This document shows positions 11,330 through 46,295 of a stretch of DNA of 64,000 nt, piece by piece. The stretch is from a virus, in IMG/VR virus record IMGVR_UViG_3300044726_000013, positions 1-64,000 of that record. One strand, given 5' to 3'. The notes under the pieces were generated by a model that ran no database searches, was not told the origin of the DNA, and saw only the letters and a program-made list of their open reading frames with translations. The position numbers were made by a program, and so were the translations under genes. Within the stretch, counting starts at the first letter, position 1. The number at the start of each line of letters is the position of its first letter.

Positions 11330-11923
11330 ATGACCACAGACGATGACCTGTCAGCCGCGCTGGCGGCAGAAGCCCAAGCGGCATCCCCGGCTGACGCTGA
11401 GGCCCCACCCACCCTAGAGCGCATGCAACAGCTTGCGGCTGAGGTGGCTGACATAGATGACCGCATTGAAAAGAACACGCTACGCATCGCGGTGCTGCAA
11501 GCCCGGCGCAACGCCATTGTGTTCAAAGACCTTGTTGAATTGATGGATGAGGCCCACGTGACCCAGCTTCAGGTGGGCGCTGACGTGTTCAAGGCCGGGC
11601 CGTACTACAAGGCCGTCATACCTGTTGAGGACCAGAACCACCCCGGCTATGCGTGGCTTGAGGCCCATGAGGCAGGCAGCTTGATCAAAAATCAGGTGGT
11701 GCTTGAGTTTCCACGTGGCTCAGAAGATGACGCCAAGCTGGCTGAAGACATGTGCCGCAAGCGTTTTCAACAGGCTGAGGTGAGCCGCAAGCGCATGGTT
11801 CACCACGGCACCTTGACGAAATGGCTGAAGGAGGTGCATGAAAGTGGTGACACCATGCCACCGCTTGACGTGATTGGCGGCACGGTGGGCCGCGTTGTGA
11901 AGATAACCAAAGCAAAGGAATAA
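11330..11923 (+). CDS. Conserved hypothetical protein of YuA-type replication modules
   Basis: WL...G.LIK and VH..TL..W motifs; lies between the helicase and the SSB-like gene. Confidence 0.7.
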   Translation: MTTDDDLSAALAAEAQAASPADAEAPPTLERMQQLAAEVADIDDRIEKNTLRIAVLQARRNAIVFKDLVELMDEAHVTQLQVGADVFKAGPYYKAVIPVEDQNHPGYAWLEAHEAGSLIKNQVVLEFPRGSEDDAKLAEDMCRKRFQQAEVSRKRMVHHGTLTKWLKEVHESGDTMPPLDVIGGTVGRVVKITKAKE

Positions 11924-11926
11924 ATC

Positions 11927-12811
11927 ATGGCCAAAGAAGTAGTAGCGAAGAAGAACGGCAACGGCGGTGACCTGATACCGGCTGATATGCTTGACGAGAT
12001 GATTGCCAATGCCGGTGCCGGTGTCAGCACGGCGTCTGACGACAATATTTTGCCATTCATAATCTTGCTTCAGGACCTCAGCCCTGAAGTCAAGAAGCGT
12101 GACCCTGCCTACGTTGAGGGTGCTGAGGCTGGCATGTATCTCAACAGGGCCACCAAGGCGCTGTACGCGGGTGACAGGGCCATGGCTGAGCGCACCGGCA
12201 AGCCGCAACTTGAGTTTCAGCACTGCGTGCTGACCAAGGAAATTGTTGAGTGGGTGCCCCGCAATGACGGCGGCGGCTTTGTGGCCCGCTACCCGCTGGT
12301 GGGCACGGTTGAAGACACCATGCGCAAGCTGGGGGCCCGGCAGATGGCTGACCCGCAAGACCCCAACAAGGTGGTCTGGAAGACCGCAGACGGCGCGCAT
12401 GACCTGATTGAGACGCGCTATCACTTTGGCAACATCATCAATGACGACCTGCCGCAGCCCGCCGTCATTGCCTTCAAGTCAACCGGCCACACCGCCAGCA
12501 AGTCATGGAACACCATGATGCTGGGCTTCAAGATTGTGGACCCCAAGACCCAGCGCCCCATGCTGCACAACGGGCAGGTGCTGACCATGCCTGCGTGGTT
12601 CAGGCGCTATGTGGTGGGCACCACCCCCAAGGAGAACAACAAGGGCAGCTTCTTTGTCACCACGGTGGCTGATGGCGGGGTGATCAAAGACCCCGGCCTG
12701 AGGGCGGCTGGCAAGACCCTGCACGACGGTGCCAAGGCTGGGCTGATCAAGGCTGGCACTGATGAAGATGGCGGCGGCGGTGGCCGCGCTGAGGCTTCTG
12801 ACGAAATCTAG
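11927..12811 (+). CDS. Putative single-stranded DNA-binding protein
   Basis: PFI.LLQ.LSPEV and EWVPR..GGG.V motifs, acidic C-terminal tail, upstream of primase. Confidence 0.55.
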   Translation: MAKEVVAKKNGNGGDLIPADMLDEMIANAGAGVSTASDDNILPFIILLQDLSPEVKKRDPAYVEGAEAGMYLNRATKALYAGDRAMAERTGKPQLEFQHCVLTKEIVEWVPRNDGGGFVARYPLVGTVEDTMRKLGARQMADPQDPNKVVWKTADGAHDLIETRYHFGNIINDDLPQPAVIAFKSTGHTASKSWNTMMLGFKIVDPKTQRPMLHNGQVLTMPAWFRRYVVGTTPKENNKGSFFVTTVADGGVIKDPGLRAAGKTLHDGAKAGLIKAGTDEDGGGGGRAEASDEI

Positions 12812-12921: not shown

Positions 12922-14610
12922 ATGGTTGATGAAGCACTGGCGCGCCGGTTCATGCAACGGTTTGAAGGCTACACCACGGCCTACGGTACTTACGACAAGA
13001 ACAAAACGGTCACAGGCATTCTGGGCGGCAAGGTTGAGATCAAAAGCACCGCCATCACCAAGCGTGAGCCGGTGACGCTCAAACTCTGGCTTGACCACCT
13101 GAACGGCGTGGCCCCGCTGGGTATCATCCCCATACGCTCAAACAACACCTGCCTGTGGGGCTGCATTGATATCGACCAATACGGCGTTGATGTTGTTGAA
13201 CTGCAAGCACGCATAGCCAGAAAGGGCCTGCCGTTGATCTTGGCGGCCAGCAAGTCAGGCGGCGCGCACGCCTTCTTGGTCATGATGCGCAAGCTGAGCG
13301 CGCCACCAGCGGCCAGCGTCATGAAATACCGCCTAGAGGAAATGGCCGCCATGCTTGGCTATGGTGGCTCAGAGATATTCCCCAAGCAAAGCACGGTGCT
13401 GTACGCGCGCGGTGATCTGGGCAGTTGGCTCAACATGCCATACTTTGGGGACACCCGCTGGGCCTACCGCCCTGACGGCAGCACCATGCCGCCTGAAGAG
13501 TTCATGAACACACTTGACGCGCTTGAGCAGACATCTGAATGGCTGCTTGAGGTGGATGACGCAACCAAGAGCGCAGCGGCTGATGATACAGGCAAGAAGG
13601 GTGACGTGGAGTTCAGTGACGGGCCACCCTGCATGCAGCACCTGAGCGCCATTGGCATTGGTGAAGGTGGCCGCAATGAAGGCATCATGGCCATGGGTAT
13701 CTTTGCCAAGAAGAAATTCCCAAACAACTGGGAAGAGGTGCTTGAGCGTTGGAACAGGCTTTACGCTATGCCGCCGCTGCCCGCTGCTGAAATACTGGAT
13801 GTCATCAAGCGGCTGAAGCTAAAGGACTACTTTTACCCGTGCAAGAAGCAACCCATCAAGGCGCACTGCAACAGCGCCCTGTGCCGCACGCGCAAGCACG
13901 GCGTGGCGTCTGGCTCACCTGAAGACATGCCGGTTATAGGTGGCCTGTCATGCCTGCCCGGTGATGAAGAACTGTGGTTCTTGGATGTTGGTGACACGCG
14001 CATAGAACTGACCACCGAACAGTTGATGAATTACCGGGTATTTCAGCGTGTCTTGGCCGCGAAATACTACAAGATGTTCACGGGCATGGCACAGTCTGAC
14101 TGGAACATTGTGGTTGGCGCGGCACTGCGTGAAGTCAACGTCTTGGATGTGCGGCCTGAAGTGGGGCATCTGGGCCAGTTTGTTGAGTTGCTTGATGATT
14201 TTGTCAACAACAAGCACAGAGCAACCACCCGTGAGGAAATACGACTGGGGCGGCCATGGCTTGACGCAGACCTGACCGTGAAGCTTGAGGGCTTGCCTGA
14301 TGAAGCCCGGCATTTCTTCAGGCTGCGTGACCTGAGGCGATTTCTTGAAGAGGCCAAGTTCACGGTCTTCAACGCGTCACAACTGACCACGCGCCTGAAG
14401 CACCTGAATGGCGGCTCACACTTTTTTCAATTGGCTGTGGAGCCATCAAAGCCGGGCAAGGCCGGGGCCCCGGATGATGGGGCTGACGACAAGAAGAACG
14501 GCAAAAAGAAGGAGACCAAGGGCACCAACGTTTGGTGGGTGCCCGCTGACTTCATTGTGCCAATGCCCCGCGTTGAGACGCCACCCATAAAGAAGGATGA
14601 ACTGGCATGA
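12922..14610 (+). CDS. AEP-type DNA primase with PriCT domain
   Basis: WGCIDID, SKSGGAH, EIFPKQ, WLNMPY, PPC and GGRN motifs; Cys cluster. Confidence 0.85.
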   Translation: MVDEALARRFMQRFEGYTTAYGTYDKNKTVTGILGGKVEIKSTAITKREPVTLKLWLDHLNGVAPLGIIPIRSNNTCLWGCIDIDQYGVDVVELQARIARKGLPLILAASKSGGAHAFLVMMRKLSAPPAASVMKYRLEEMAAMLGYGGSEIFPKQSTVLYARGDLGSWLNMPYFGDTRWAYRPDGSTMPPEEFMNTLDALEQTSEWLLEVDDATKSAAADDTGKKGDVEFSDGPPCMQHLSAIGIGEGGRNEGIMAMGIFAKKKFPNNWEEVLERWNRLYAMPPLPAAEILDVIKRLKLKDYFYPCKKQPIKAHCNSALCRTRKHGVASGSPEDMPVIGGLSCLPGDEELWFLDVGDTRIELTTEQLMNYRVFQRVLAAKYYKMFTGMAQSDWNIVVGAALREVNVLDVRPEVGHLGQFVELLDDFVNNKHRATTREEIRLGRPWLDADLTVKLEGLPDEARHFFRLRDLRRFLEEAKFTVFNASQLTTRLKHLNGGSHFFQLAVEPSKPGKAGAPDDGADDKKNGKKKETKGTNVWWVPADFIVPMPRVETPPIKKDELA

Positions 14611-17806: not shown

Positions 17807-18649
17807 ATGCGCGTTGAAGACATCTGGGTGTTCGCCCAAAAGCGGCACTACATCTACCTGAGACGCACAGCCGGGGCACCCCCGGAAACGTGGACTGATG
17901 ACCCCATTCTGAAGACCTACCGCTTCTGCAACATGTACCGTGAACTTGACACCGTGACCGATTGGTTGCGGGTCAACTGGCGTGAGCCGCACGCTGACCA
18001 CCCTGACCTGTGGCACGCCTTTGTGGTGGCCCGGCACATCAACAACGTGCCCATGCTGACTGCGCTGGGCGGCATCACGCTGCCGTGGGACCCCGGCCAT
18101 TTCATTGACGTGGGCATGGCCCGCAAGCAGGCTGGTGAGCGCGTCTGGTCTGCCGCCTACATCATTGGCACCCGCACGCCCGGTGACAAGTGCATCTACA
18201 TTGCCGATAACGTGCTGACGCCCATGTGGCGCAAGCGTGACAAGATCAGGCCGCAACAGGGTGACACGCTGACCAGTTGGCACATGCAGCTTGGCCTATG
18301 GTTCGGCATGGCCAGCTTCATGGCGGCGCAGGTGATTGCGGATATCAAGCACGCCACCCCGGCGCTGAAGAACGCTGGTGACTGGCACACCTTCTGCGCC
18401 AGCGGGCCGGGCAGCCGCCGTGGGCTCAACCGCATCTTTGAGCGTGACAAGAATGCGCCTTGGCGTGAAGATGACTTCAGGCTGAAGCTGCTGAGCCTGA
18501 GGCAGGAACTGGCACCCATGTTTGCCGCCAGCGGCTGGGCTATACCTGACGCGCAAGACGTGCAGAACATGCTGTGTGAGTTTGACAAGTACGAGCGCAC
18601 CCGGCTGGGTGAGGGCAAACCCAAGCAACTGTTCAGAGGTGGATCATGA
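17807..18649 (+). CDS. aGPT-Pplase clade 1 (HhH-glycosylase-like helical protein of thymine hypermodification systems)
   Basis: WTDDPIL..YRFCN.YRE.D, F.A.QV..D, GPGS.RGL and D.QN.LCEFDKY.R motifs. Confidence 0.85.
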   Translation: MRVEDIWVFAQKRHYIYLRRTAGAPPETWTDDPILKTYRFCNMYRELDTVTDWLRVNWREPHADHPDLWHAFVVARHINNVPMLTALGGITLPWDPGHFIDVGMARKQAGERVWSAAYIIGTRTPGDKCIYIADNVLTPMWRKRDKIRPQQGDTLTSWHMQLGLWFGMASFMAAQVIADIKHATPALKNAGDWHTFCASGPGSRRGLNRIFERDKNAPWREDDFRLKLLSLRQELAPMFAASGWAIPDAQDVQNMLCEFDKYERTRLGEGKPKQLFRGGS

Positions 18650-22488: not shown

Positions 22489-22658
22489 AAAGCAACTTCA
22501 CCTACGCCCAGAGCCAGAGGATGACCACCGCTGAGGTGGTCATTCTGCTGACCGTCAGCTTTGGCTGCTGGTTTACCGATCACCGGGCGGCGGCCATTGT
22601 GTTCTTGGCTTTGGCGGCGCTGTCACTGAACTGCCATTTCAGGAGAACCTACAAATGA
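22485..22658 (+). CDS. Small membrane protein
   Basis: 57-aa ORF read manually, coupled to both neighbours, two hydrophobic stretches. Confidence 0.5.
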   Translation: MKSNFTYAQSQRMTTAEVVILLTVSFGCWFTDHRAAAIVFLALAALSLNCHFRRTYK

Positions 22659-23665
22659 AAGCCCCCAAGCGCCAGCCGCTGCTGAGTGACATGCTACTAC
22701 AGCAGACCCGCAGCCCCTACGACCCGCCGCGCCAGAGCATGCTGACGGCCAAGCGGTTTGACTTTGACGTGCCTGCCTCAGAGTTCGTGGGCAAGCTGCT
22801 GAACAAGACAGCCCGGCTGATCTTGCGTGAACAGGAGTTTGCCCGGCAGCCCTACCCGCAGACGTGGGTTGAACTTGACGCCAGCGCCTACAGCGCGGGC
22901 CTGATGGGCGCGGTTGAGGGCAACCCTGAGACGGCCGACACCAAGTTTGGCTTCCTGTATGACCGGGGCACGGTTCACGGCGGCACGGTCTATTGCGGCG
23001 CGGCCAGCAAGTGGGGCTGCAACTGGTCACCGTTCAAGATCATGCTGCACAAGCCCATGTCATTTGAGGATGAGATGGCGCTGGCCACCCAAACGGGGCA
23101 TTCCCGGTTGACCCTGCGCCAAGCCCTGATTGGCTACGCTGAACACATGCATGACCCATGGTGGCATAGCGATGAGGCCAAGAGCCTTGTGCGCAGCCAC
23201 ACCTACGTGCCCGCGCCCGGTCTGAGCATGGAACAGAACAGGGGCATCTTGCAACAGCATCAGGGCGTGCTGAAACAGGTGCTGGCCATGCTGCTGATCT
23301 TGACCCGACCGGGACGCCGCGTGCTGACCATCACTGATGAAGGCCACCAGCGCATGATATGGAAGGGCAAGAGCATAGTTCTGGCCAAGCACAGCGTGGT
23401 CAGGCTGCATATTGACCAGAGCGTGGCCATACGGCGGTTTATCAGCGGCGTGCATACAGGCTTGCACAGAAGGCTGCACGATGTCAGAGGTCATTGGGCG
23501 CAGACGCGCCGCCACCAGAACGCCTGCACGCACGTGTGGGACCCGGTTGACGTTGACCACTACCGCTGCCTGCGGTGTGAGGCCAAGCGGTGGTGGCGCA
23601 AGAACCACAGCAGGGGCCTGCCTGAGGTGGGCACCATTGTTAAGGAATATGAGGTGAGCAAGTGA
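22655..23665 (+). CDS. Hypothetical protein with C-terminal H.VRGHW motif and Zn-finger
   Basis: HDVRGHW, C.H.W, C..C and WWRK.H.RG motifs; AGGAG RBS. Confidence 0.75.
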   Translation: MKAPKRQPLLSDMLLQQTRSPYDPPRQSMLTAKRFDFDVPASEFVGKLLNKTARLILREQEFARQPYPQTWVELDASAYSAGLMGAVEGNPETADTKFGFLYDRGTVHGGTVYCGAASKWGCNWSPFKIMLHKPMSFEDEMALATQTGHSRLTLRQALIGYAEHMHDPWWHSDEAKSLVRSHTYVPAPGLSMEQNRGILQQHQGVLKQVLAMLLILTRPGRRVLTITDEGHQRMIWKGKSIVLAKHSVVRLHIDQSVAIRRFISGVHTGLHRRLHDVRGHWAQTRRHQNACTHVWDPVDVDHYRCLRCEAKRWWRKNHSRGLPEVGTIVKEYEVSK

Positions 23666-24089: not shown

Positions 24090-24261
24090 GCGGCGGCGCG
24101 CTGAGCGGGCGGCGCACAAGTTCAGTGATGACATAGGCGGGCACGCCAGCAACTACCGCCAGACCGTGCCGCCCATGGTGCACACCAACATCAAGGATCA
24201 CAGTGATGTGCGTGACGCCACAACCGAAAAACCGCTGGCACCAAAACCTGACCGATGTTAG
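24058..24261 (+). CDS. Hypothetical protein
   Basis: 67-aa ORF filling the gap before the ino1 leader. Confidence 0.4.
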   Translation: MDPWFKLTTAERRRAERAAHKFSDDIGGHASNYRQTVPPMVHTNIKDHSDVRDATTEKPLAPKPDRC

Positions 24262-24312: not shown

Positions 24313-24356
24313 GGCGGCCCGTGGCATTGGCTGGTCACGGGCCGCCTGTTTATTTC
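24313..24356 (+). terminator. Terminator-like hairpin just upstream of the ino1 RBS
   Basis: GGCGGCCCGTGGC...GTCACGGGCCGCC followed by TGTTTATTTC. Confidence 0.55.
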
Positions 24357-24373: not shown

Positions 24374-25456
24374 ATGAGGAAAATACGCGTGGCCATTGTG
24401 GGCGTGGGCAATTGCGCCAGCGCCCTGATCCAAGGGCTGGCTTACTACGGCCAGACATCTGACAACTACCCCAAGCCCGGCATGATCACACCCTTGCTGG
24501 GCGGCTACGGCCCGGCTGACATTGAGGTGGTCACCGCCTTTGATGTGGTAGACACCAAGGTGGGGTTGCCCATCAATCAGGCCATCTGGGCGCAACCCAA
24601 CAACACCACGGCAATAGTGGATAGCGTGCCTGAGTGCGGCAAGGTCTACCGTGGCCCCACGCTTGACGGTCTGGGCAAGTACCTGCGTGAGGTGGTGGGT
24701 GAAAGCACAGTAGAGCCGATTGACGTTGAAGACACGCTGGCGCTGCTGAATGTGGATGTTCTGGTCAGCTACCTGCCGGTGGGCTCTGATCTGGCGGCCC
24801 AGCACTATGCCGGGGCGGCGCTGCGCGCCAACACAGCATTCGTGAACTGCATGCCTGCGTTCATTGCCTCTGACCCTGAATGGGCCGCTGCCTTCAAGCG
24901 GGCGGGGGTGCCCATCATTGGGGATGACATCAAGTCACAGGTGGGGGCCACCATTGTGCACCGCACGCTGGTGCAGTTGCTGCGTGAGCGCGGCTATGTG
25001 CTGAGGCGCACCAGCCAGTTGAATGTGGGCGGCAATTCTGACTTCCTCAACATGCTTGAGCGCAGCCGCCTGACCAGCAAGAAGATCAGCAAGACGCGGG
25101 CCGTCACCAGCATCATGGGCGTGGAACTGCCTGCTGAAGACGTGCACATTGGCCCGTCTGACTATGTGCCGTGGCTGGGTGACACCAAGGTGGCGCACAT
25201 CAGGCTTGAGGCTGAGGGCTTTGGTGGCGCACCGTTGACCATGGACCTGAAGCTTGAGGTGGTTGACAGCCCCAACAGCGCGGGCGTGGTGATGGACGCC
25301 ATACGCTGCGCCGCCGTGGCGCAGGACCGTGGGCAGGGCGGGCCGGTGGCGGCAGCCTGCGCTTGGTACATGAAAAGCCCGCCCGAACAGTGGGATGATA
25401 GCGTGGCCAGTGATCTGCTTGATGAATGGCTGAGAGGGGATGATCTGACATGGTGA
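24374..25456 (+). CDS. ino1: myo-inositol-1-phosphate synthase (inositol-3-phosphate synthase)
   Basis: GVGNCAS Rossmann motif, YLPVGS, GDDIKSQVGAT, QLNVGGN.DFLNM, SKKISKT, HIGPSDYVPWL and DSPNSAG; 360 aa; GAGGG RBS. Confidence 0.95.
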   Translation: MRKIRVAIVGVGNCASALIQGLAYYGQTSDNYPKPGMITPLLGGYGPADIEVVTAFDVVDTKVGLPINQAIWAQPNNTTAIVDSVPECGKVYRGPTLDGLGKYLREVVGESTVEPIDVEDTLALLNVDVLVSYLPVGSDLAAQHYAGAALRANTAFVNCMPAFIASDPEWAAAFKRAGVPIIGDDIKSQVGATIVHRTLVQLLRERGYVLRRTSQLNVGGNSDFLNMLERSRLTSKKISKTRAVTSIMGVELPAEDVHIGPSDYVPWLGDTKVAHIRLEAEGFGGAPLTMDLKLEVVDSPNSAGVVMDAIRCAAVAQDRGQGGPVAAACAWYMKSPPEQWDDSVASDLLDEWLRGDDLTW

Positions 25457-26496
25457 GAGAATTTTCAACTGAGCAACACCGCAAGCACTTTGCTGAGTTC
25501 TGTAGGTGGGAGTTGGCCAGCGGTGGCCCAGACCCGCAACTGGCCATGGTGGCTTATATGGCCCGCCAGCAAGAGGTGAATGAAGAGGAGCAGTTGTGGC
25601 GGGCCTTCTGCTACATTGGCCCCTACAACGTGCCCTACGGTGAAGTGCTGTGGCGGCACTGGTCATACCGCGATCTGGCTGATGACGAGAAGGGCATCAT
25701 AAAGGCGGGCCTGCGCAACTGGCTTGATGCCGCTTTCAACGCTGACAAGATCACCACCCGCATTGAGCGGCGCACGGTGCGGCGGGCCGATTGGCTGCAT
25801 GAGTACCTGTTGGGTGCCCGGCGCTTCATCTGGCATGACTGGCCTGAGTTGGTGGATGAGTGCCTGAGCCTTCACCCGCACCAAGCCTATGAGGTGGCAT
25901 GGCAGAAGGTCACGGCGCTGCCGCGCATAGGCCGCTACGCGGCAATCAAGCTGATTGAGTACCTGAGGCGCTATCAGGGGCTGATGGTCCTCACGCCCGA
26001 TATACGGCCCAAAGACGCATGGTCACCGCGCCATACGCTGGGCTACATCTGGCCAGACCGCAACCTTGGCAACCGTGACAACAGCCCTGAGGCGCTGACG
26101 GTGGCCAGCCAAGCCTGCATTGACGCGCTGACGCTGCTGAAGCATGACTACGATGTCACCATAGACATGTTTCAGCTTCAGGTGCTGCTGTGTGAGTACC
26201 GTGAAAGCTGGGAAAAGGGCAAGCAATACCCCGGCCGCTCACTAGATAGCGAACTGGGCTACGCCCGCAAGGCTGAACTTGACTGGGCCTACAACAGCGG
26301 CATCTGGCGCGCCCGGCGTGACCTGTTCCCGCTACAGCATCTGGGTGAGCATCAGGGCTGGGAGGGGCCGCGCAAGCCGGTGGCCGGGTGCCTGCGTGAC
26401 CACGGCTACACGTGGACTGACCTGAAGTATGACTTCATCAAAACCACTGATATGGATGAGCCTGTGATGTGGAGAGGGTCTGATGGCAGCCGGTGA
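25450..26496 (+). CDS. aGPT-Pplase clade 2-like / amino acid:DNA transferase-family protein (divergent)
   Basis: GGPDP N-terminus, ERR..R, HhH-like LPRIGRYAAIKLIEYL, LLCEY...GKQYPGRSLD; same cluster as the 5-hmU kinase. Confidence 0.72.
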   Translation: MVREFSTEQHRKHFAEFCRWELASGGPDPQLAMVAYMARQQEVNEEEQLWRAFCYIGPYNVPYGEVLWRHWSYRDLADDEKGIIKAGLRNWLDAAFNADKITTRIERRTVRRADWLHEYLLGARRFIWHDWPELVDECLSLHPHQAYEVAWQKVTALPRIGRYAAIKLIEYLRRYQGLMVLTPDIRPKDAWSPRHTLGYIWPDRNLGNRDNSPEALTVASQACIDALTLLKHDYDVTIDMFQLQVLLCEYRESWEKGKQYPGRSLDSELGYARKAELDWAYNSGIWRARRDLFPLQHLGEHQGWEGPRKPVAGCLRDHGYTWTDLKYDFIKTTDMDEPVMWRGSDGSR

Positions 26497-26677
26497 CCGG
26501 GTTGAGGGTGAGACGTTGCACACGTACCTTGGGGATGGCGTCTACGCCAGCTTTGACGGCTACCAGATATGGCTGCGGGCCGACCGCTTTGGCATAGAGC
26601 AAGCCGTGGCCGTTGAGCCTGAGGTGATGGCCCAACTGGTGATCTACGCCGCCAAGGTCTTTGGGGAAAAGCCATGA
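26483..26677 (+). CDS. Small hypothetical protein
   Basis: YLGDGVYASFDGYQIWL motif. Confidence 0.7.
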   Translation: MAAGDRVEGETLHTYLGDGVYASFDGYQIWLRADRFGIEQAVAVEPEVMAQLVIYAAKVFGEKP

Positions 26678-27111
26678 TGAAAATCTACCGCGTGGCAACA
26701 GACCTGATGCTGTCTGCCCGCACCCACACCCTGACCGATGACCAGTGCGTTGATCTGGTCAACAGGCATGAACTCACCGCCATCATCAACCTGTGGCACA
26801 CGCCGGATCAGCGCGTGGCCAAGATGGTTGACTGGTATGAGTGCGTGCCGCTGCCTGACGGCCAGATCAGTGAGCGCATGGCCCACTGCCTTGAAACCTT
26901 GGCAGATGACGTGGCCGCTGAGGTGCGCAGGGGCGGCAGGGTGCTGATGCATTGTTGGGGCGGGCGCAACCGCTCAGGTTTGCTGGCGGCCTTGGTGCTG
27001 ACCCGGCTGGAGCGTATAACCGGCAGCCAAGCCTATGACCGCGTGCGGGCCGTGCGGCGCGGCGCGCTGGTCAACCTGCACTTTGCCAACTACCTGAAGA
27101 GGCGGCCATGA
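26674..27111 (+). CDS. CX5R (dual-specificity/PTP-like) phosphatase
   Basis: VLMHCWGGRNRSGL active-site loop; PLPD acid loop. Confidence 0.9.
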   Translation: MMKIYRVATDLMLSARTHTLTDDQCVDLVNRHELTAIINLWHTPDQRVAKMVDWYECVPLPDGQISERMAHCLETLADDVAAEVRRGGRVLMHCWGGRNRSGLLAALVLTRLERITGSQAYDRVRAVRRGALVNLHFANYLKRRP

Positions 27112-27521
27112 GCATTCCTGAAAAGCTACGTCAGGCATATCATAACGATCTGACTGACGTGCCCTTGCTGCTTGAGGCGGCTGATGAAATTGACAAGTGG
27201 GACCGGCGTTGGTGCGTGGCTGTTAAGACGATAGCTGAGCGTGATGAAACCATCGAGCGGCTGACGGCAGAGCGCAACAAGCTGGAAGACATGTGGCGTG
27301 AGCGCCCCACCGGCACCCGCAACCAGCGTGAGCGCCAGCTTACCAAGCGGTTGGAAGACGCTGAGGCATTAGCTTTCACGCTGGCAACGCAGGTCAGGGC
27401 GGCTGAGGCCGTACTGGTGACCATTGAGAGCCGGGCCAGCGGCTACACCCATGGGGATGAACGGGTTGAAGCCACGTTCAGGGGCATAGCGGAACTTGCC
27501 CGTAAGAAGGCGGCGTCATGA
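27108..27521 (+). CDS. Coiled-coil hypothetical protein
   Basis: EAADEI..L motif and heptad pattern; coupled ORF. Confidence 0.65.
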   Translation: MSIPEKLRQAYHNDLTDVPLLLEAADEIDKWDRRWCVAVKTIAERDETIERLTAERNKLEDMWRERPTGTRNQRERQLTKRLEDAEALAFTLATQVRAAEAVLVTIESRASGYTHGDERVEATFRGIAELARKKAAS

Positions 27522-28081
27522 GCATTGTTCTGATCAGGGGCACGGGCGGCAGCGGCAAGACCTACATTGCCGAGCAGGTGATCAAGGCGCTGGGCGGCCT
27601 GAGCGCGGCCACCACGTTCACCATGGGGCCCAAAGACAAGACGGCGGGCTACATCTGGCGGGCTCCCCCGGTTACCATCATGGGGCGCTACGGCAACGCC
27701 TGCGGCGGCTGTGACACCATTGGCGGCTGGCCGGGGGGTCCAGATGATATCTGCAAGCGCATTGCCGTTGAGGCGTCACTGGGCCAGAGCGTGCTGTGGG
27801 AGGGCATTGCCGTCAGCAGCTACGGCCAGAAGCGGTTGCTGCTGATGCCGGGCCTGACGGTCATTCAGCTTGACACTTCACTTGAGGAATGCGTTAAGTC
27901 AATCTATGCGCGGCGCGCGGCCAAGGGCAATGCAAAGCCGCTTGACCTGTACCACACCGAGCGTAAGCATAAGGCGCTGTTTACGACCACGCGCAGCAAC
28001 GCGGCGGCGGGCATTGCCACTGAGACGCACAGCCGTGAAACTGCATTGCCGCGCGTCATGGAATTACTTGGTTTAGTTTAG
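27518..28081 (+). CDS. P-loop kinase, putative 5-hydroxymethyluracil DNA kinase
   Basis: IRGTGGSGKT Walker A, G.Y..ACGGCDTI, V.WEG and L..SLEEC...I..RR motifs. Confidence 0.8.
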   Translation: MSIVLIRGTGGSGKTYIAEQVIKALGGLSAATTFTMGPKDKTAGYIWRAPPVTIMGRYGNACGGCDTIGGWPGGPDDICKRIAVEASLGQSVLWEGIAVSSYGQKRLLLMPGLTVIQLDTSLEECVKSIYARRAAKGNAKPLDLYHTERKHKALFTTTRSNAAAGIATETHSRETALPRVMELLGLV

Positions 28082-28222
28082 GGGAGATCATTTTGAGGGC
28101 GAACGGCCAGCCCAACAACGGTAAGTCACCTCCCTATCTCCCCGGCCCAGTGCGGCTTGCTTAGAGGGTCAAGGTGATGCGGCTAGGAAAGTGCATACCT
28201 TTTTGGTTCAGAGCGTTGAGAG

Positions 28223-28262
28223 TGGCGGCGGGGCAGGCGAACCCCCCGCCGCCATTTTATTT
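28223..28262 (+). terminator. Terminator-like hairpin just upstream of the hydroxymethylase RBS
   Basis: TGGCGGCGGGG...CCCCGCCGCCA followed by TTTTATTT. Confidence 0.55.
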
Positions 28263-28276
28263 GAGGGGAGTTTCAC

Positions 28277-29332
28277 ATGTTTACTATTCACGTCAGCAAC
28301 GTCAACTACGCATGGCTTGACGCCATCAAGCTTATTCAGCAGTACGGCGTGCCAGAAGACAGCCGCGCGGGGCGCGTCAGCGTGATGCCCGGCCCGGTGA
28401 CCACCATCTATAACCAGCCGCGCCAGAGGGTGCTGTTTGATGCTGTGCGTGACGCCAACCCGGTGTTTCACCTGCATGAGGCGCTGTGGATGCTGGCGGG
28501 GCGCAATGACGCTACGGGGCTAGATATATTCGTCTCAGATTTCAGCGCCCGGTTTGCTGAAGAGGATGGCCGCCAGCACGGGGCCTATGGCTACCGCTGG
28601 CGCAACCACTTCACCAACGTGCGTGACTTTGCGGGCGTTGACATGGATCAGCTTGACGTGGTGGTTGACATGCTGGCGCGTGACCCCGGCACACGGCAGG
28701 CGGTCATTGCAATGTGGGACGCTGAGGTTGACCTTGACCAGCCGCGCCTGAAGGATAAGCCCTGCAACACCCACATCTACCTGCGCCTGCGCATCACGCC
28801 ACGCACCGCTGGGGCTAGTGCCAGTGGGCTGATGGTGCAGGCTGACCTGCGTGAACTTGACATGGCCGTGATGTGCCGCAGCAATGACATCGTGTGGGGT
28901 TGCTACGGTGCCAACGCCGTGCACTTCAGCATCTTGCAGGAGTATCTGGCAGCGCGGATGGGCGTAGAGATGGGGCGGCTGACGCAGTTCAGCTTCAACT
29001 GGCACATGTACTCTGCCACCAAGCATCTGGCTGACATCGTGGGGGCTGAGGCGGGCATCATGGGCGGCTACCCCGGCACCGTGCCGCTGGTGACAGACCC
29101 CCGCAGCTTTGACCGTGAGGTGCGCGCCTATGTGCAAGACCCCAGCCTTGCCACGCTGGGTGAATTTGATAACGAGTTTCTGACCCGCACGGCATGGCCC
29201 ATGTACATGGCCAACATTGAGCGCAAGGCGGGCAACACGGCCACGTCTGCCCTGACGTGGGCAGAAAGCATTCAGGCACCAGATTGGCGCAAGGCCACCA
29301 TGGCGTGGCTAGAAAGGAAGATAAAGAAATGA
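28277..29332 (+). CDS. Thymidylate-synthase-family dUMP hydroxymethylase
   Basis: RDANP.FHL.E.LWML.GRND, HGAYG.RWR, D.PCN and CRSND...G.YGAN..HFS.LQEY; Asn indicates dUMP specificity. Confidence 0.85.
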   Translation: MFTIHVSNVNYAWLDAIKLIQQYGVPEDSRAGRVSVMPGPVTTIYNQPRQRVLFDAVRDANPVFHLHEALWMLAGRNDATGLDIFVSDFSARFAEEDGRQHGAYGYRWRNHFTNVRDFAGVDMDQLDVVVDMLARDPGTRQAVIAMWDAEVDLDQPRLKDKPCNTHIYLRLRITPRTAGASASGLMVQADLRELDMAVMCRSNDIVWGCYGANAVHFSILQEYLAARMGVEMGRLTQFSFNWHMYSATKHLADIVGAEAGIMGGYPGTVPLVTDPRSFDREVRAYVQDPSLATLGEFDNEFLTRTAWPMYMANIERKAGNTATSALTWAESIQAPDWRKATMAWLERKIKK

Positions 29333-29628
29333 GCATCTTCAGGACGGTCAGAAAGATCAAGGACTGTGACACCTGCAACGGCAGCGGCCGGGTACTTACC
29401 GACCCCGCCAAGGGCACTGAGGGGCCGTGTGATACCTGTGGCGGCGAGGGCCGGGTAGAGGTGCTGGTCAGGGCCAACCGGGCGGCGGTGCATCAGGCTG
29501 AGGTGGCTACCAAGCAGATGAACCCCGGCCCGGCGCGCAAGGCCGCCAAAGCCCGGCTTGCCGGTGTTGAGAAGGATGGTACTGTCAGTTCTGATGACAG
29601 TAGAGGGTTTGTGAATGAAGACGAGTGA
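29329..29628 (+). CDS. Small protein with DnaJ-type Zn finger
   Basis: CDTCNGSG...CDTCGGEG. Confidence 0.7.
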   Translation: MSIFRTVRKIKDCDTCNGSGRVLTDPAKGTEGPCDTCGGEGRVEVLVRANRAAVHQAEVATKQMNPGPARKAAKARLAGVEKDGTVSSDDSRGFVNEDE

Positions 29629-30166
29629 CACTGATTTTGTGACTGACTGCCTGATGTTTGCCGGGCGCATCAAGCGATACCACTCTTGGCCGGTGATCCA
29701 AAACCAGACGGTGGGTGAGCATTGCTGGCAGGTGGCGCTGATCTACCAGCAACTTTGGGGTGACATCCCCAGCCCGGTTGAGAAGTACATCAGGCTGCAT
29801 GACGTGGCTGAACTTGTGCTGGGTGACATACCGTTCCCCGCCAAGGCCAACAACCCTGACCTGAAGGCGGCCTATGACGCGGCTGAGGGCCGGGCGCTGG
29901 CTGAGTTGGGCCTGTACGTGCCCACGCTGCACCCTGACGTGCGGCTCAAGGTCAAGATTTGCGACCTGCTTGAGATGATGTGCTTTGGCATGGTTGAGCG
30001 TGAACTGGGCAACACGCTGGCCCTGCCCATCATCATACGCACGCGTGAGGCGGCGCTGAAGCTGGTCAACAAAATAGATACAGAAGGTGAGCGCAACCGA
30101 ATATATGCTTGGTCTGATCAACAGATTGAGCGGCACCACGCCGCGTTGGCACAGACAGAAGATTAA
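29615..30166 (+). CDS. HD-domain 5'-deoxynucleotidase (YfbR-like)
   Basis: R...Q.V.EH.W.V, LHD..E...GDIP.P.K and K.CD.LE motifs. Confidence 0.82.
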   Translation: MKTSDTDFVTDCLMFAGRIKRYHSWPVIQNQTVGEHCWQVALIYQQLWGDIPSPVEKYIRLHDVAELVLGDIPFPAKANNPDLKAAYDAAEGRALAELGLYVPTLHPDVRLKVKICDLLEMMCFGMVERELGNTLALPIIIRTREAALKLVNKIDTEGERNRIYAWSDQQIERHHAALAQTED

Positions 30167-30175
30167 GGAGTACTA

Positions 30176-30796
30176 ATGTTGGATAAAGTCAAGACAATAC
30201 TTGAGGAGCGGCCCGGCAAGCACGGTGAGTTTGCTGAGAACAGTCACGCTACTTGGGAAATCATGCGCGCTATGCAGCATGAGCGCAACTGGCCGACCAT
30301 GACCGATCAACAGAAGCACGCCGTCTACATGGTGGCGCACAAGCTGGCGCGCATTGTCTGTGGTGACCCGGCTGAGCCTGACCACTGGGATGACATTGCC
30401 GGGTATGCCACGCTGGTGGCTGACCGTCTGCGCAAACCCGTGGTGCCCTATGACGGCACTGACGTGTACAGCGCGCTGGCTGTGGCGTGGCACGTGCCGC
30501 GTGAAGAGGCCAAGGCCCGCGTGCAGCAGATCATGCGCCAGCAAGCTGGCCAGCGCACTGAGGCCGCCGCCACCATGGCCAAAGACCTGTCAGGCAGGCC
30601 CACCAGCGCGCTTGAGGCGTTTGGGCGGTCACAGACACTACCCAAGGCGTCAGACGCGCCCCAGCGGCCCCAGCGGCCCGGCACGGGCACGCCTGAAGAC
30701 GGTGGCCACCACGCTGATGTCAGCGCTGAAGAGCTGGCTGAAGAACTGCGGCGTGAACTTGAGGCTGATCTGGGCACGCGGCAACAGGGCGTGTGA
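30176..30796 (+). CDS. DUF6378-like (all-alpha NTP-pyrophosphatase-related) protein with C-terminal extension
   Basis: L.ER...HG.F and K.ARI..GDP...DHW.DIAGYA.L motifs. Confidence 0.65.
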   Translation: MLDKVKTILEERPGKHGEFAENSHATWEIMRAMQHERNWPTMTDQQKHAVYMVAHKLARIVCGDPAEPDHWDDIAGYATLVADRLRKPVVPYDGTDVYSALAVAWHVPREEAKARVQQIMRQQAGQRTEAAATMAKDLSGRPTSALEAFGRSQTLPKASDAPQRPQRPGTGTPEDGGHHADVSAEELAEELRRELEADLGTRQQGV

Positions 30797-30799
30797 GCC

Positions 30800-32800
30800 T
30801 TGGCCAAAGCCAGACGCCATCAAGAGGGTCAGCTAGGCTTGTTCAAACCCGATAGCGACTGGCAGCCACCGGCCGAGTTGCCTGACCTGAGGGGCAGGCC
30901 GGTGGTGGCCCTAGATTGTGAAACCAAAGATCAGGGCCTGATGGACAAGAAGGGCTCAGGCTGGGCGCTTCTGAGAAGCGGCACCATCTGCGGTGTCAGT
31001 TGGGCGGCGGCGGGCAGTAGCGGCTACGCGCCCATGGCGCACCCTGACACGGCAGAGCCGCTGAACGTGATTGAGTGGGTCAGCGATCTGGTCAAGAGCG
31101 GCACCAAGCTGGTATTCCACAGTGCCGCCTATGACTATGGCTGGCTGACCCGGCTTGATGCCGACATGACCGGCGCTGACATCAATGACACGCTGGCCGC
31201 CTGCGTGCTGGTTGATGAAACGGAATACAGCTACGCCCTTGATGATTGCTGCAAGCGCATAGGCTTGCCGGGCAAAGACATGACCATGCTGCTCAAGGCC
31301 GTGGAGGCGTTTGGCAGCGACCCCAAGAAGGCGCGTGAGAACATCTGGCGGCTACCGGCCAAGTATGTTGCGCCCTACGCCATAGCCGACGCCGAGCAGA
31401 CGCTGGCGCTGTGGCACGCCACGCAGCCGCTGCTGATTGAACAGAACCTGATGGCCGCCTATGAGACTGAGATGGGTCTGGTGCCCATGGTGGTGGCCAT
31501 GCGGCGGCGGGGGATCAGGCTTGACCTACCCCGCATTGAGGCCCTGATCAAGGCGCTGGCGGTAGAACGTGACGCGGCACTGGCTGACGTGGGTGAACTC
31601 ATGGAAATGCCCCGCCCCGCCAGCATGGATGAGATACGCAGCCCCAAGAACATGGAGAAGTGGTTCACCGTCAACAAGATCACTTTTCCTTACACGGCCA
31701 AGGCACAGCAGGGCAGCTTCACCAAAGACTGGATGGAGAAGCATGAACACCCGCTGCCGCGTGCCTGTGCGCGGGCAGAACTGTATGAAGAGGCGGCGGC
31801 CAAGTTCGTCAACAACTACCTGTTGGGCTACCAGAGCAACGGGCGCATTCACGCGGAAATTCACCAGTACCGTGACACGACCGGGGGCACCCGCAGCCAC
31901 CGCTTTAGCTACTCTGAGCCGCCGCTGCAACAGATGACCAGCCCCGACAAGCCGGGGCCGCTGGGTGCCATAGGCAAGGCCATCAGGGGGTGCTTCTTGC
32001 CTGAGCCCGGTGAGCGCTGGGTGGCGCTTGATTACTCTCAGCAGGAACCCCGGCTGACCGTGCACTTTGCCAGCAAGGTGGGTGCTGAGGGCGCTGAAGC
32101 GGCGGTGCAGCGGTACATAGACAAACCCGATACCGACTATCACGCCATGGTGGCAGAGATGACCGGCAGGCCCCGACCCATAGCCAAAATCCTCAACCTT
32201 GCCATGACCTACGGCAAGGGCAAGCGCAGTCTGGCTGAGGAACTGGGCGTCAGCCTGTCAGACGCTGAGGCCATACTGGCTGACTACCACGACCGGCTGC
32301 CGTTCATCAAAAGCCTAGAGGACAAGTGCAAGAACGCCGCCAGCCAGCGCGGCTACATCAGGCTGATAGACGGGGCGCGCATGCACTACCCGCAATGGGA
32401 GGGTGGCTACGTTGACTGGGACCGGCGCGCTGACGCTGAGCGGCGCGGCAAGGTGCTGACGCCAACTGATCTGGCCACCGCGCAAGAGCGGCAGGCCGAC
32501 CCCGACCACCCGTGGTCTGGCACAAGGCTGCGGCGGGCTGACACGCGCAAGGCGCTGAACAATCTGGTGCAGGGCAGCGCGGCCCGGCAGACCAAGCGGG
32601 CCATGCTGGCCATCTGGCAAGAGGGCATCATACCCATGGTGCAGTTGCATGACGAACTTGACATCAGCACCGCTGACCGGGCAGTGGCGCTGCGGGTACA
32701 GCAGATCATGGTTGAGACGACCCCGCTGGTGGTGCCTACCATTGTGGACCTTGAGGTTGGCCCCACGTGGGGTGAAGCAAAAGAGGAGTGGCATGCCTAA
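30800..32800 (+). CDS. polA: DNA polymerase family A with 3'-5' exonuclease
   Basis: LDCET exo motif, RFS.S.P.LQQ, DYSQQEPR motif A, K..NLA..YG motif B, QGSAA, QLHDEL motif C. Confidence 0.95.
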   Translation: MAKARRHQEGQLGLFKPDSDWQPPAELPDLRGRPVVALDCETKDQGLMDKKGSGWALLRSGTICGVSWAAAGSSGYAPMAHPDTAEPLNVIEWVSDLVKSGTKLVFHSAAYDYGWLTRLDADMTGADINDTLAACVLVDETEYSYALDDCCKRIGLPGKDMTMLLKAVEAFGSDPKKARENIWRLPAKYVAPYAIADAEQTLALWHATQPLLIEQNLMAAYETEMGLVPMVVAMRRRGIRLDLPRIEALIKALAVERDAALADVGELMEMPRPASMDEIRSPKNMEKWFTVNKITFPYTAKAQQGSFTKDWMEKHEHPLPRACARAELYEEAAAKFVNNYLLGYQSNGRIHAEIHQYRDTTGGTRSHRFSYSEPPLQQMTSPDKPGPLGAIGKAIRGCFLPEPGERWVALDYSQQEPRLTVHFASKVGAEGAEAAVQRYIDKPDTDYHAMVAEMTGRPRPIAKILNLAMTYGKGKRSLAEELGVSLSDAEAILADYHDRLPFIKSLEDKCKNAASQRGYIRLIDGARMHYPQWEGGYVDWDRRADAERRGKVLTPTDLATAQERQADPDHPWSGTRLRRADTRKALNNLVQGSAARQTKRAMLAIWQEGIIPMVQLHDELDISTADRAVALRVQQIMVETTPLVVPTIVDLEVGPTWGEAKEEWHA

Positions 32801-45791: not shown

Positions 45792-46295
45792 ATGACACGC
45801 CCTTACCCGCAGACTACGGTCTACCAGCCCCGGTGGGCAGAGGAAGATTACCGTAGACGCCCCAAGTCATTTGACCCCGAGATTGCGCTGCTGATCATTG
45901 AGCGGATCAAGAACGGTGAGACGTTGAACGCGCTGTGCGCCAACAACCGTGACTACCCGCTGCCCGGCACGTTCGTTGAGTGGCTTGAGCAAGAGCCTGA
46001 CATGATGGCCCGCTACCGCAGGGCCAAGAACATTCAGGCTGAGTTGCTGGTTGATGGCATGCTTGAAGACGGCAAGGCTGGCACGTGGGATGCCGCCACG
46101 CGGGTGGCGGCGGGCAAGACCTACGTTGAGAAGACTGACCCCGCCCGCTACGGGCCAAGGGCCACGGTGATCAACCAGCCCGTGCCTGAGGCTGAGCCCC
46201 AGTCAGACGCGGCCAAGGTCAGCGTCAAGGCCAAGGTCAATCAGATCGTTGAACGCATAGCAGCCCGCAAACGCAAGACAGAGGAAGCCAGCTAA
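45792..46295 (+). CDS. terS: Terminase small subunit
   Basis: I.ERI..GETL..LC....P...F..WL......RY.RA...QAE HTH; P..YG motif; upstream of terL. Confidence 0.78.
   Translation: MTRPYPQTTVYQPRWAEEDYRRRPKSFDPEIALLIIERIKNGETLNALCANNRDYPLPGTFVEWLEQEPDMMARYRRAKNIQAELLVDGMLEDGKAGTWDAATRVAAGKTYVEKTDPARYGPRATVINQPVPEAEPQSDAAKVSVKAKVNQIVERIAARKRKTEEAS

Follow-up and report, generated by a model that had tools for sequence, protein, structure and literature searches.

The best described relatives of the locus analyzed here are the thymidine hypermodification clusters of the phages PaMx11 and M6. The PaMx11 cluster, which is linked to 5-AcNmdU, encodes a 5-phosphomethyldeoxyuridine (5-PmdU) glycinyltransferase of the ADDT family (gp46, PUGT), a flavin adenine dinucleotide (FAD) lyase (gp47), an acetyltransferase (gp48), a 5-hydroxymethyldeoxyuridine (5-hmdU) DNA kinase (gp49, 5-HMUDK), gp50, a hydroxymethylase (gp51), an HD domain protein (gp52) and a family A DNA polymerase (gp55, PolA). 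The 5-NedU cluster of M6 combines a Gly:DNA transferase (gp51) with a pyridoxal phosphate (PLP)-dependent decarboxylase (gp52), a radical-SAM isomerase (gp53) and a kinase (gp54). More generally, the known thymidine hypermodifications are either built from amino acids or polyamines or consist of sugars attached by glycosyltransferases. The subject of the present analysis is an operon located in a 64,000-nucleotide stretch of viral DNA (hereafter the window; positions 1 to 64,000 of the IMG/VR virus record IMGVR_UViG_3300044726_000013), which starts with a gene for a homologue of myo-inositol-1-phosphate synthase (MIPS, Ino1) followed by a gene for a divergent ADDT homologue. With moderate confidence, we interpret this operon as a post-replicative thymidine hypermodification system of the M6/PaMx11 type in which the amino acid tailoring genes are replaced by an inositol supply module.

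The similarity to the PaMx11 cluster includes the gene order, the orthologous kinase, HMUDK_hel protein, hydroxymethylase, HD domain protein and PolA, and the fold of the transferase together with an aligned cysteine, whereas the FAD lyase and the acetyltransferase of PaMx11 give way to Ino1, a CX5R phosphatase and two small open reading frames (ORFs; Table 1). M6 shares the overall operon (the gp51-gp62 layout apart from the tailoring genes) and the siphophage genome type but relies on PLP and radical-SAM enzymes and on an amino acid donor from the host; the window contains neither of these enzymes, and the proposed donor would be made by the phage. Most of this layout had been recognized in a preceding sequence-only reading of the same DNA, and the matching order of PaMx11 gp46-gp55 and M6 gp51-gp62 bears out its description of an M6/PaMx11-like locus with substituted tailoring genes. 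Its gene list also holds: the Ino1 stop codon (25454-25456) overlaps the start codon of the transferase gene (25450) as ATGGTGA, the chain of overlapping ORFs continues on the plus strand through the phosphatase to the kinase (overlaps of 14, 4, 4 and 4 nt from the transferase gene onward), and the hydroxymethylase, HD, DUF6378 and PolA genes follow downstream, with a gap of 195 nt between the kinase and hydroxymethylase genes. The lack of an amino acid tailoring enzyme, which that reading reported for the cluster, extends to the entire 79.6-kb genome with respect to the radical-SAM and PALP domains; no inositol monophosphatase (IMPase) domain was detected in this genome either, and a check of ten further unassigned ORFs revealed no tailoring domain. 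The source is an uncultured soil phage represented by metagenomic sequence only. Nearly identical sequence was recovered in independent soil, groundwater and sediment runs, so the arrangement of the operon is not an assembly artefact; no RNA data set was among the runs listed.

Ino1 matches the Pfam family Inos-1-P_synth (Table 1) and aligns over 352 residues without gaps with the solved Ino1 structure of Mycobacterium tuberculosis (1GR0; 415 bits, E=3e-123), in agreement with its initial designation as an intact synthase. The score against the five-membered-cyclitol synthase 6K96 is about half of that (218 bits). The GDDIK, QLNVGGN, SKKISK and DSPNSAG motifs are invariant among the phage copies of Ino1, and the residues aligned to D197, K284, D310 and K346 of the M. 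tuberculosis enzyme, which are presumably essential for catalysis, are D, K, D and K. The start codon at 24374, as originally called, is preceded by a ribosome-binding site (GAGGG-N7-ATG), and the operon begins directly 3' of a terminator-like hairpin. A longer Ino1 ORF starting at 24203 was rejected given that its reading frame crosses this hairpin (24313-24346).

The transferase is the weakest single gene identification in the operon, as judged from the sequence comparisons. Its own score against the ADDT profile (PF18724; E=0.018, 15.2 bits) is below the gathering cut-off of 26.2 bits, but homologues with 45-65% identity exceed this cut-off (29.9-48.4 bits) and many of its 125 relatives bear PF18724. 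The AlphaFold 2 model (predicted local distance difference test score 96.2) has the all-helical fold of PaMx11 gp46, and in a fold search the structure of gp46 (8Z2N) is the sole match in the Protein Data Bank (PDB) with E<1e-3 (probability 1.0, template modelling score 0.48-0.59), followed by lower matches to helix-hairpin-helix glycosylases. Direct comparison yields much less: BLASTP against gp46 gives no match (E=1.7), an hhalign comparison between the family profile and gp46 as a lone sequence reaches E=0.022 with a probability of 2%, and a PDB profile search with the transferase alignment returns only a marginal match to the ADDT domain entry 25qc (E=0.13). The membership in the ADDT family therefore rests on the Pfam matches of the homologues, the fold search and synteny. 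Thus, the assignment of 25450-26496 to this family made from the sequence alone stands for the homologues and the fold but is below threshold for the protein itself. In gp46, Cys247 is catalytic and Trp146 binds glycine (PMC11472151). In the weak hhalign alignment (E=0.022), the invariant Cys248 of the window's transferase aligns with Cys247 and the near-invariant Lys167 with Lys150 of gp46. An invariant Tyr163 takes the place of the glycine-binding Trp146, and Gln-Val that of Glu243-Thr244.

The remaining enzymes of the pathway are closer to their counterparts. The P-loop kinase is 32% identical to PaMx11 gp49 over 97% of its length (tblastn, E=1e-16), and the hidden Markov model (HMM) of its family built here matches gp49 (6e-60) and M6 gp54 (2e-33). 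As gp49 is a biochemically proven 5-hmdU DNA kinase (PMC8989533, Table 1), this homology supports the kinase identity first proposed for 27518-28081. The names 'terminase small subunit' given in RefSeq to gp49, gp54 and gp114 of Caulobacter phage Cr30 explain the PHROG label of the window's kinase. We observe that 5-hmdU DNA kinases are widely mis-annotated in this way (the window's kinase, PaMx11 gp49, M6 gp54, PHROG 800); the real small terminase of the window is encoded at 45792-46295 (Pfam Sf6_terminase, 2e-17). The HMUDK_hel protein encoded upstream of the operon is an orthologue of PaMx11 gp50 (BLASTP, 7e-40) and YuA gp14 and is part of the same pathway. The hydroxymethylase is orthologous to PaMx11 gp51 (4e-133) and M6 gp58 (9e-128) in searches with an HMM built here, and is the predicted source of 5-hmdU for the operon. 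It contains Asn at the uracil-selecting position, within RSNDIVWGCYGAN, a position that presumably determines the choice of the pyrimidine. Hydroxymethylcytosine was considered as the target base and is unlikely given this Asn and the orthology to the M6 and PaMx11 enzymes; the modified base is probably thymine.

The linkage between Ino1 and the transferase was surveyed in both directions against the metagenomic contigs of IMG/VR using ORF calls and family HMMs built here. The transferase-based survey yielded 55 loci which, together with the window, form 45 lineages at 85% identity, 33 of them with at least 2.5 kb on each side. In these 33 lineages of the window's clade, the kinase is present in 31, the dual-specificity phosphatase (DSP) within 4 kb in 30 and Ino1 in 16, and the linkage of Ino1 with the transferase is retained down to about 30% transferase identity. 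In the reverse direction, the best 80 of 93 matches, ranked by similarity to the window's Ino1, were grouped into 52 lineages at 90% identity. An ADDT gene is located within a few genes of Ino1 in 38 of these; 4 others have neither an ADDT nor a QueC-like gene but encode an HMUDK_hel protein nearby, and a single group (L083; L numbers are our locus labels) lacks any modification gene in the vicinity. Such a neighbourhood survey had been suggested in the sequence-only reading, which named a lack of conservation of ino1 beside the transferase as one possible refutation; ino1 is indeed conserved beside the transferase family across very divergent phages.

In the phylogenetic tree of the ADDT homologues, there are two clades, both remote from M6 gp51 and PaMx11 gp46, the Gly transferases; a long branch lies between these two enzymes and the window's clade. 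In clade A, from T4-like phages, all 10 ADDT genes adjoin Ino1 and none is accompanied by a DSP; the gene order is TET/JBP, ADDT, Ino1, mini-HAD and P-loop kinase, with TET/JBP as the source of 5-hydroxymethyluracil. In clade B, which includes the window, Ino1 is present in most rows of the tree and has been lost or gained at least 8 times. There are accordingly two operon designs, one with a dUMP hydroxymethylase and a DSP phosphatase, the other with TET/JBP and a mini-HAD phosphatase. T4-like and Moby-like phages have this mini-HAD gene after Ino1, whereas the window contains no homologue of it. Because the linkage spans two clades, two sources of 5-hydroxymethyluracil, two types of phosphatase and different gene orders, it would be hard to explain without a functional tie between Ino1 and the ADDT proteins.

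Several observations weigh against this interpretation. About half of the window's transferase clade (17 of the 33 lineages) lacks Ino1, and complete genomes with direct terminal repeats encode an ADDT homologue and a DSP but no Ino1 anywhere; clade B thus would be either not strictly specific for inositol or provided with the donor by some hosts. In the nearest Ino1-less relative (57% identity of ADDT, 71-74% of PolA and UvrD), a radical-SAM gene occupies exactly the site of Ino1. The DSP is tied to the ADDT homologue and not to Ino1, as it is found in the complete Ino1-less genomes as well. Ino1, in turn, is not exclusive to thymine pathways, with 9 of the 52 viral lineages adjoining QueC-like or other 7-deazaguanine genes. 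Finally, the window's transferase falls under the Pfam threshold and is only weakly similar to gp46 in pairwise and profile comparisons, and Ino1 scores 448.7 bits against TIGR03450 (positions 1-354 of 355), below the equivalog cut-off of 638 bits. We take Ino1 to belong to a phage lineage that has diverged within the genuine MIPS enzymes, with an identical function likely, although this level of similarity does not certify it.

Two groups of loci depart from the common composition in other respects. Ino1-less members with an ADDT gene and a DSP (L036, L042, L055, L030, L046 and others) encode a ParB-associated TET/JBP dioxygenase rather than a dUMP hydroxymethylase, which fits the class of ParB-dependent T-dioxygenases (PMC13229309). 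Loci with both Ino1 and ADDT, such as L045, L057, L058, L077 and others, additionally encode a C5 cytosine DNA methyltransferase and a protein of about 310 amino acids near the kinase, and their DNA may contain more than one type of modified base.

The phosphatase belongs to the DSPc family (2e-10, 40.9 bits against a cut-off of 33.5) and contains an HCX5R(S/T) loop in which Cys94 and Arg100 are invariant among 38 homologues. Its PDB profile matches are generic dual-specificity phosphatases and PRLs, which point to no particular substrate. The persistence of ADDT and DSP in genomes without Ino1 indicates that the phosphatase tracks the transferase, as do the contrasting frequencies in the window's clade (30 of the 33 lineages with a DSP, 16 with Ino1), and in several relatives the two proteins are fused; some loci of this clade combine Ino1, an HAD_2 hydrolase and the DSP. 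Each of the 14 control genomes contains an IMPase homologue, and the dephosphorylation of inositol-3-phosphate could thus be left to the host; SuhB-type IMPases are common in bacterial hosts. The DSP thus may not simply perform the second step of inositol supply, and it is no less likely to act on DNA, with either a phosphorylated adduct or residual 5-PmdU as its substrate. The original suggestion that a phosphatase strips the phosphate from inositol phosphate is accordingly retained in part: the enzyme is present, but its association with the ADDT clade weakens a simple supply role.

The genes, the order in which they stand and their conserved linkage are observed; the pathway that we infer from them includes the donor, the ether product and the substrate of the phosphatase as predicted elements. 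The thymidylate synthase family enzyme would make 5-hydroxymethyl-dUMP, with the HD nucleotidase helping to bias the nucleotide pool, and PolA would incorporate 5-hmdU into DNA, where the P-loop kinase would phosphorylate it to 5-PmdU. Ino1 would cyclise glucose-6-phosphate to inositol-3-phosphate. Cys248 of the ADDT homologue could then attack C6 and expel the phosphate, such that a hydroxyl group of inositol or inositol phosphate joins the exocyclic methylene to give a 5-(inosityl-oxymethyl)uracil ether. An oxygen nucleophile is not without precedent, as had been pointed out from the outset: ViI gp247 attaches serine via its hydroxyl (PMC8989533). The phosphatase might free inositol from inositol-3-phosphate prior to the transfer, remove the phosphate from a DNA-bound phospho-inosityl adduct, or erase unused 5-PmdU. 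We regard these three options as about equally probable, with a slight preference for the two roles at the DNA level because the phosphatase gene follows the transferase gene rather than Ino1.

Relatives of the operon carry a gene for an FkbM methyltransferase, an HAD_2 hydrolase or a radical-SAM/SPASM enzyme between Ino1 and ADDT. An FkbM family methyltransferase is encoded between these two genes or beside ADDT in L032 (9310-9990) and about 8 further lineages. The FkbM family includes O-methyltransferases, and the gene suggests O-methylated variants of the adduct. The radical-SAM/SPASM enzyme joins or replaces Ino1 directly upstream of ADDT in L010 (9087-10016), L006, L017 and others; its sole PDB match is the aminocyclitol dehydrogenase BtrN, a weak one (E=0.003). 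Circumstantially, these accessory genes are more in keeping with a polyol as the substrate than with an amino acid. A pair of Ino1 and mini-HAD is also found in 7-deazaguanine clusters, in Moby-like and other T4-like phages, in particular in Stenotrophomonas phage Moby (L001, 8207-13621) and in L103, L127-L129, L133 and L134; the genes are arranged as FolE, Ino1, mini-HAD, QueC-like, DpdA/TGT and QueE. Inositol thus may feed a guanine modification pathway as well.

A bolder version of the inositol hypothesis can be put forward only tentatively. Here, the ADDT homologue would take inositol-3-phosphate itself as the nucleophile, the CX5R phosphatase would then act on DNA (on phospho-inosityl-thymine or leftover 5-phosphomethyl-uracil), O-methylation by FkbM or oxidation by the radical-SAM enzyme would further adjust the adduct in relatives, and the kit of Ino1 and mini-HAD would feed 7-deazaguanine systems in Moby-like phages. 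If true, DNA would gain its first cyclitol-ether base, and the phosphatase would have no known precedent in acting on a modified nucleobase within DNA.

The frequent absence of Ino1 also admits explanations without an inositol donor. The transferase might add another host metabolite (for example, glycerol-3-phosphate, phosphoethanolamine or phosphoserine) which the DSP then dephosphorylates, with Ino1 serving an optional later step or a side decoration. Known ADDTs use Gly, Ser, putrescine or diaminopropane drawn from the host (PMC8989533; PMC13458397), and both the 17 of 33 lineages (complete genomes among them) that have ADDT and DSP without Ino1 and the fusion of the two proteins in several phages are in line with such a scheme. 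We nevertheless consider it rather unlikely: Ino1 is translationally coupled or directly adjacent to ADDT in most Ino1 loci, the window included, the T4-like clade combines Ino1 with 10 of 10 ADDTs and a DSP with none of them, and the window's operon lacks a glycosyltransferase or ligase by which inositol might be attached subsequently.

Greater distance from the proposed product would result if Ino1 had an altered specificity and made a different cyclitol phosphate, for example by accepting, like Ari2 (6K96), a different sugar phosphate, or if its product were converted by the host, in which case the adduct would be a cyclitol other than myo-inositol. The family does include this five-membered-cyclitol synthase, matched at 218 bits, the TIGR03450 score is under the equivalog cut-off (448.7 vs 638 bits), and relatives add radical-SAM and methyltransferase genes; the full-length ungapped alignment with M. 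tuberculosis Ino1 at roughly twice the 6K96 score (415 bits), the invariant MIPS motifs and the lack of an extra tailoring gene in the window make this improbable. Least of all do we expect Ino1 to be an auxiliary metabolic gene with no part in the chemistry of the DNA, such as a drain for glucose-6-phosphate or a source of envelope inositol or osmoprotection, that rides in the early region with nucleotide metabolism genes. Such regions of phage genomes gather many metabolic genes, and the L083 group does carry Ino1 with no modification gene nearby. Yet 47 of the 52 Ino1 lineages adjoin ADDT or QueC-like genes, in siphophages and T4-like phages alike and in varied gene orders, although contigs with the kinase are rare (~5e-4 of viromes; PMC8989533), and the overlap between the Ino1 stop and the ADDT start in the window points the same way.

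Table 1. Features of the source genome and of the modification locus (window coordinates)
Feature	Position	Strand	Remarks
Source genome	79.6-kb IMG/VR virus record		97% complete; siphophage with lambda-J-like tail tip, terminase and portal
HMUDK_hel protein (formerly aGPT-Pplase clade 1)	17807..18649	+	PF18723, 5e-36; 6 kb upstream of the operon
Terminator-like hairpin	24313..24346	+	13-bp stem, 11 GC pairs, T-rich tail; ends the upstream unit
Ino1 (MIPS homologue), 360 aa	24374..25456	+	first gene of the operon; PF01658, E=5e-35
Divergent ADDT (formerly aGPT-Pplase2) homologue, 348 aa	25450..26496	+	candidate 5-PmdU:nucleophile transferase
Small ORF, 64 aa	26483..26677	+	conserved in closest relatives only
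Dual-specificity (CX5R) phosphatase, 145 aa	26674..27111	+	loop HCWGGRNRS
ORF, 137 aa	27108..27521	+	near-orphan; a few loci have a partial relative
P-loop 5-hmdU DNA kinase homologue, 187 aa	27518..28081	+	tblastn to PaMx11 gp49
Thymidylate-synthase-family dUMP hydroxymethylase homologue, 351 aa	28277..29332	+	Asn at pyrimidine-selecting position
HD-domain, YfbR-like 5'-deoxynucleotidase homologue	29615..30166	+	domain/profile match
DUF6378 protein	30176..30796	+	domain match
Family A DNA polymerase (PolA) with 3'-5' exonuclease domain	30800..32800	+	domain match

Elsewhere in the window, a 336-aa protein encoded at 22655-23665 has no Pfam or NCBIfam match; the closest relatives (L005, L006, L010-L012) also encode it, immediately before the operon. 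The region at 12922-14610 and 11330-12811 comprises a primase with similarity to the TOTE conflict system's AEP domain (PF22548, 9e-12) and, preceding it, two genes similar to gp33 and gp34 of Pam3.

The chemistry of the kinase and ADDT is already established; the predicted inositol donor module and the accompanying phosphatase appear to be new. Full-text literature searches on phage DNA hypermodification, 5-hmdU, Cr30 and RP13 found no inositol- or cyclitol-modified DNA base, which agrees with the view taken in the sequence-only reading, and full-text searches of papers on thymidine hypermodification found no mention of Ino1 or a DSP phosphatase. If the proposed pathway is correct, a cyclitol ether formed by kinase/ADDT chemistry would be a new chemical class in natural DNA, the known nucleophile range of the ADDT enzymes, themselves useful tools in enzymatic DNA labelling, would be wider, and the presence of ino1 in phages of hosts that lack inositol would be explained. 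The module of Ino1 and ADDT is widespread: viromes from soil, sediment, freshwater and the sea contain dozens of lineages. The phosphatase that accompanies the window's transferase clade hints at a step missing from current pathway schemes.

Among the known systems outside PaMx11 and M6, the serine:DNA transferase of ViI (gp247; O-SerT, then 5-NeOmdU) likewise uses a hydroxyl nucleophile to form an ether on 5-PmdU (PMC8989533) but employs an amino acid donor and PLP-dependent decarboxylation, whereas the window's operon would use a cyclitol donor and has a phosphatase as the accessory enzyme. Base J (beta-D-glucosyl-hydroxymethyluracil) and the thymidines that bear phospho-sugars in SP-15, YerA41 and Carin-5 resemble the predicted product in that a bulky polyhydroxylated group is placed on the C5 methyl of thymine, and phosphate-bearing thymidine adducts exist (PMC12686479). 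These systems rely on glycosyltransferases, nucleotide sugars and glycosidic bonds; the window's operon would form an ether via the kinase and ADDT.

The nearest cultured counterparts are Caulobacter phage Cr30 (L137), with TET (gp129), ADDT (gp123), Ino1 (gp121), mini-HAD (gp118) and the kinase (gp114), and Ralstonia phage RP13 (L138), with the module, including Ino1 and ADDT, in ORF118, ORF120, ORF125 and ORF127. Cr30 gp129, which is annotated as 'SNF2 DNA repair protein', matches the TET/JBP family HMM built here (4e-116), and the ADDT domain of RP13 is part of the 590-aa product of ORF118. The DNA of RP13 has been reported to be so heavily modified that sequencing suffered (PMC12686479). 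Because these two cultured phages carry the module, the question is open to direct chemical analysis. Both Cr30 (gp114-gp129) and RP13 (ORF118-127) share with the window Ino1, an ADDT homologue and a phosphatase, to which Cr30 adds the kinase and RP13 the HMUDK_hel protein; they differ in being T4-like or RP13-like myoviruses, in having a mini-HAD rather than a DSP and ADDTs of a separate clade and, in the case of Cr30, in having TET/JBP in place of the dUMP hydroxymethylase.

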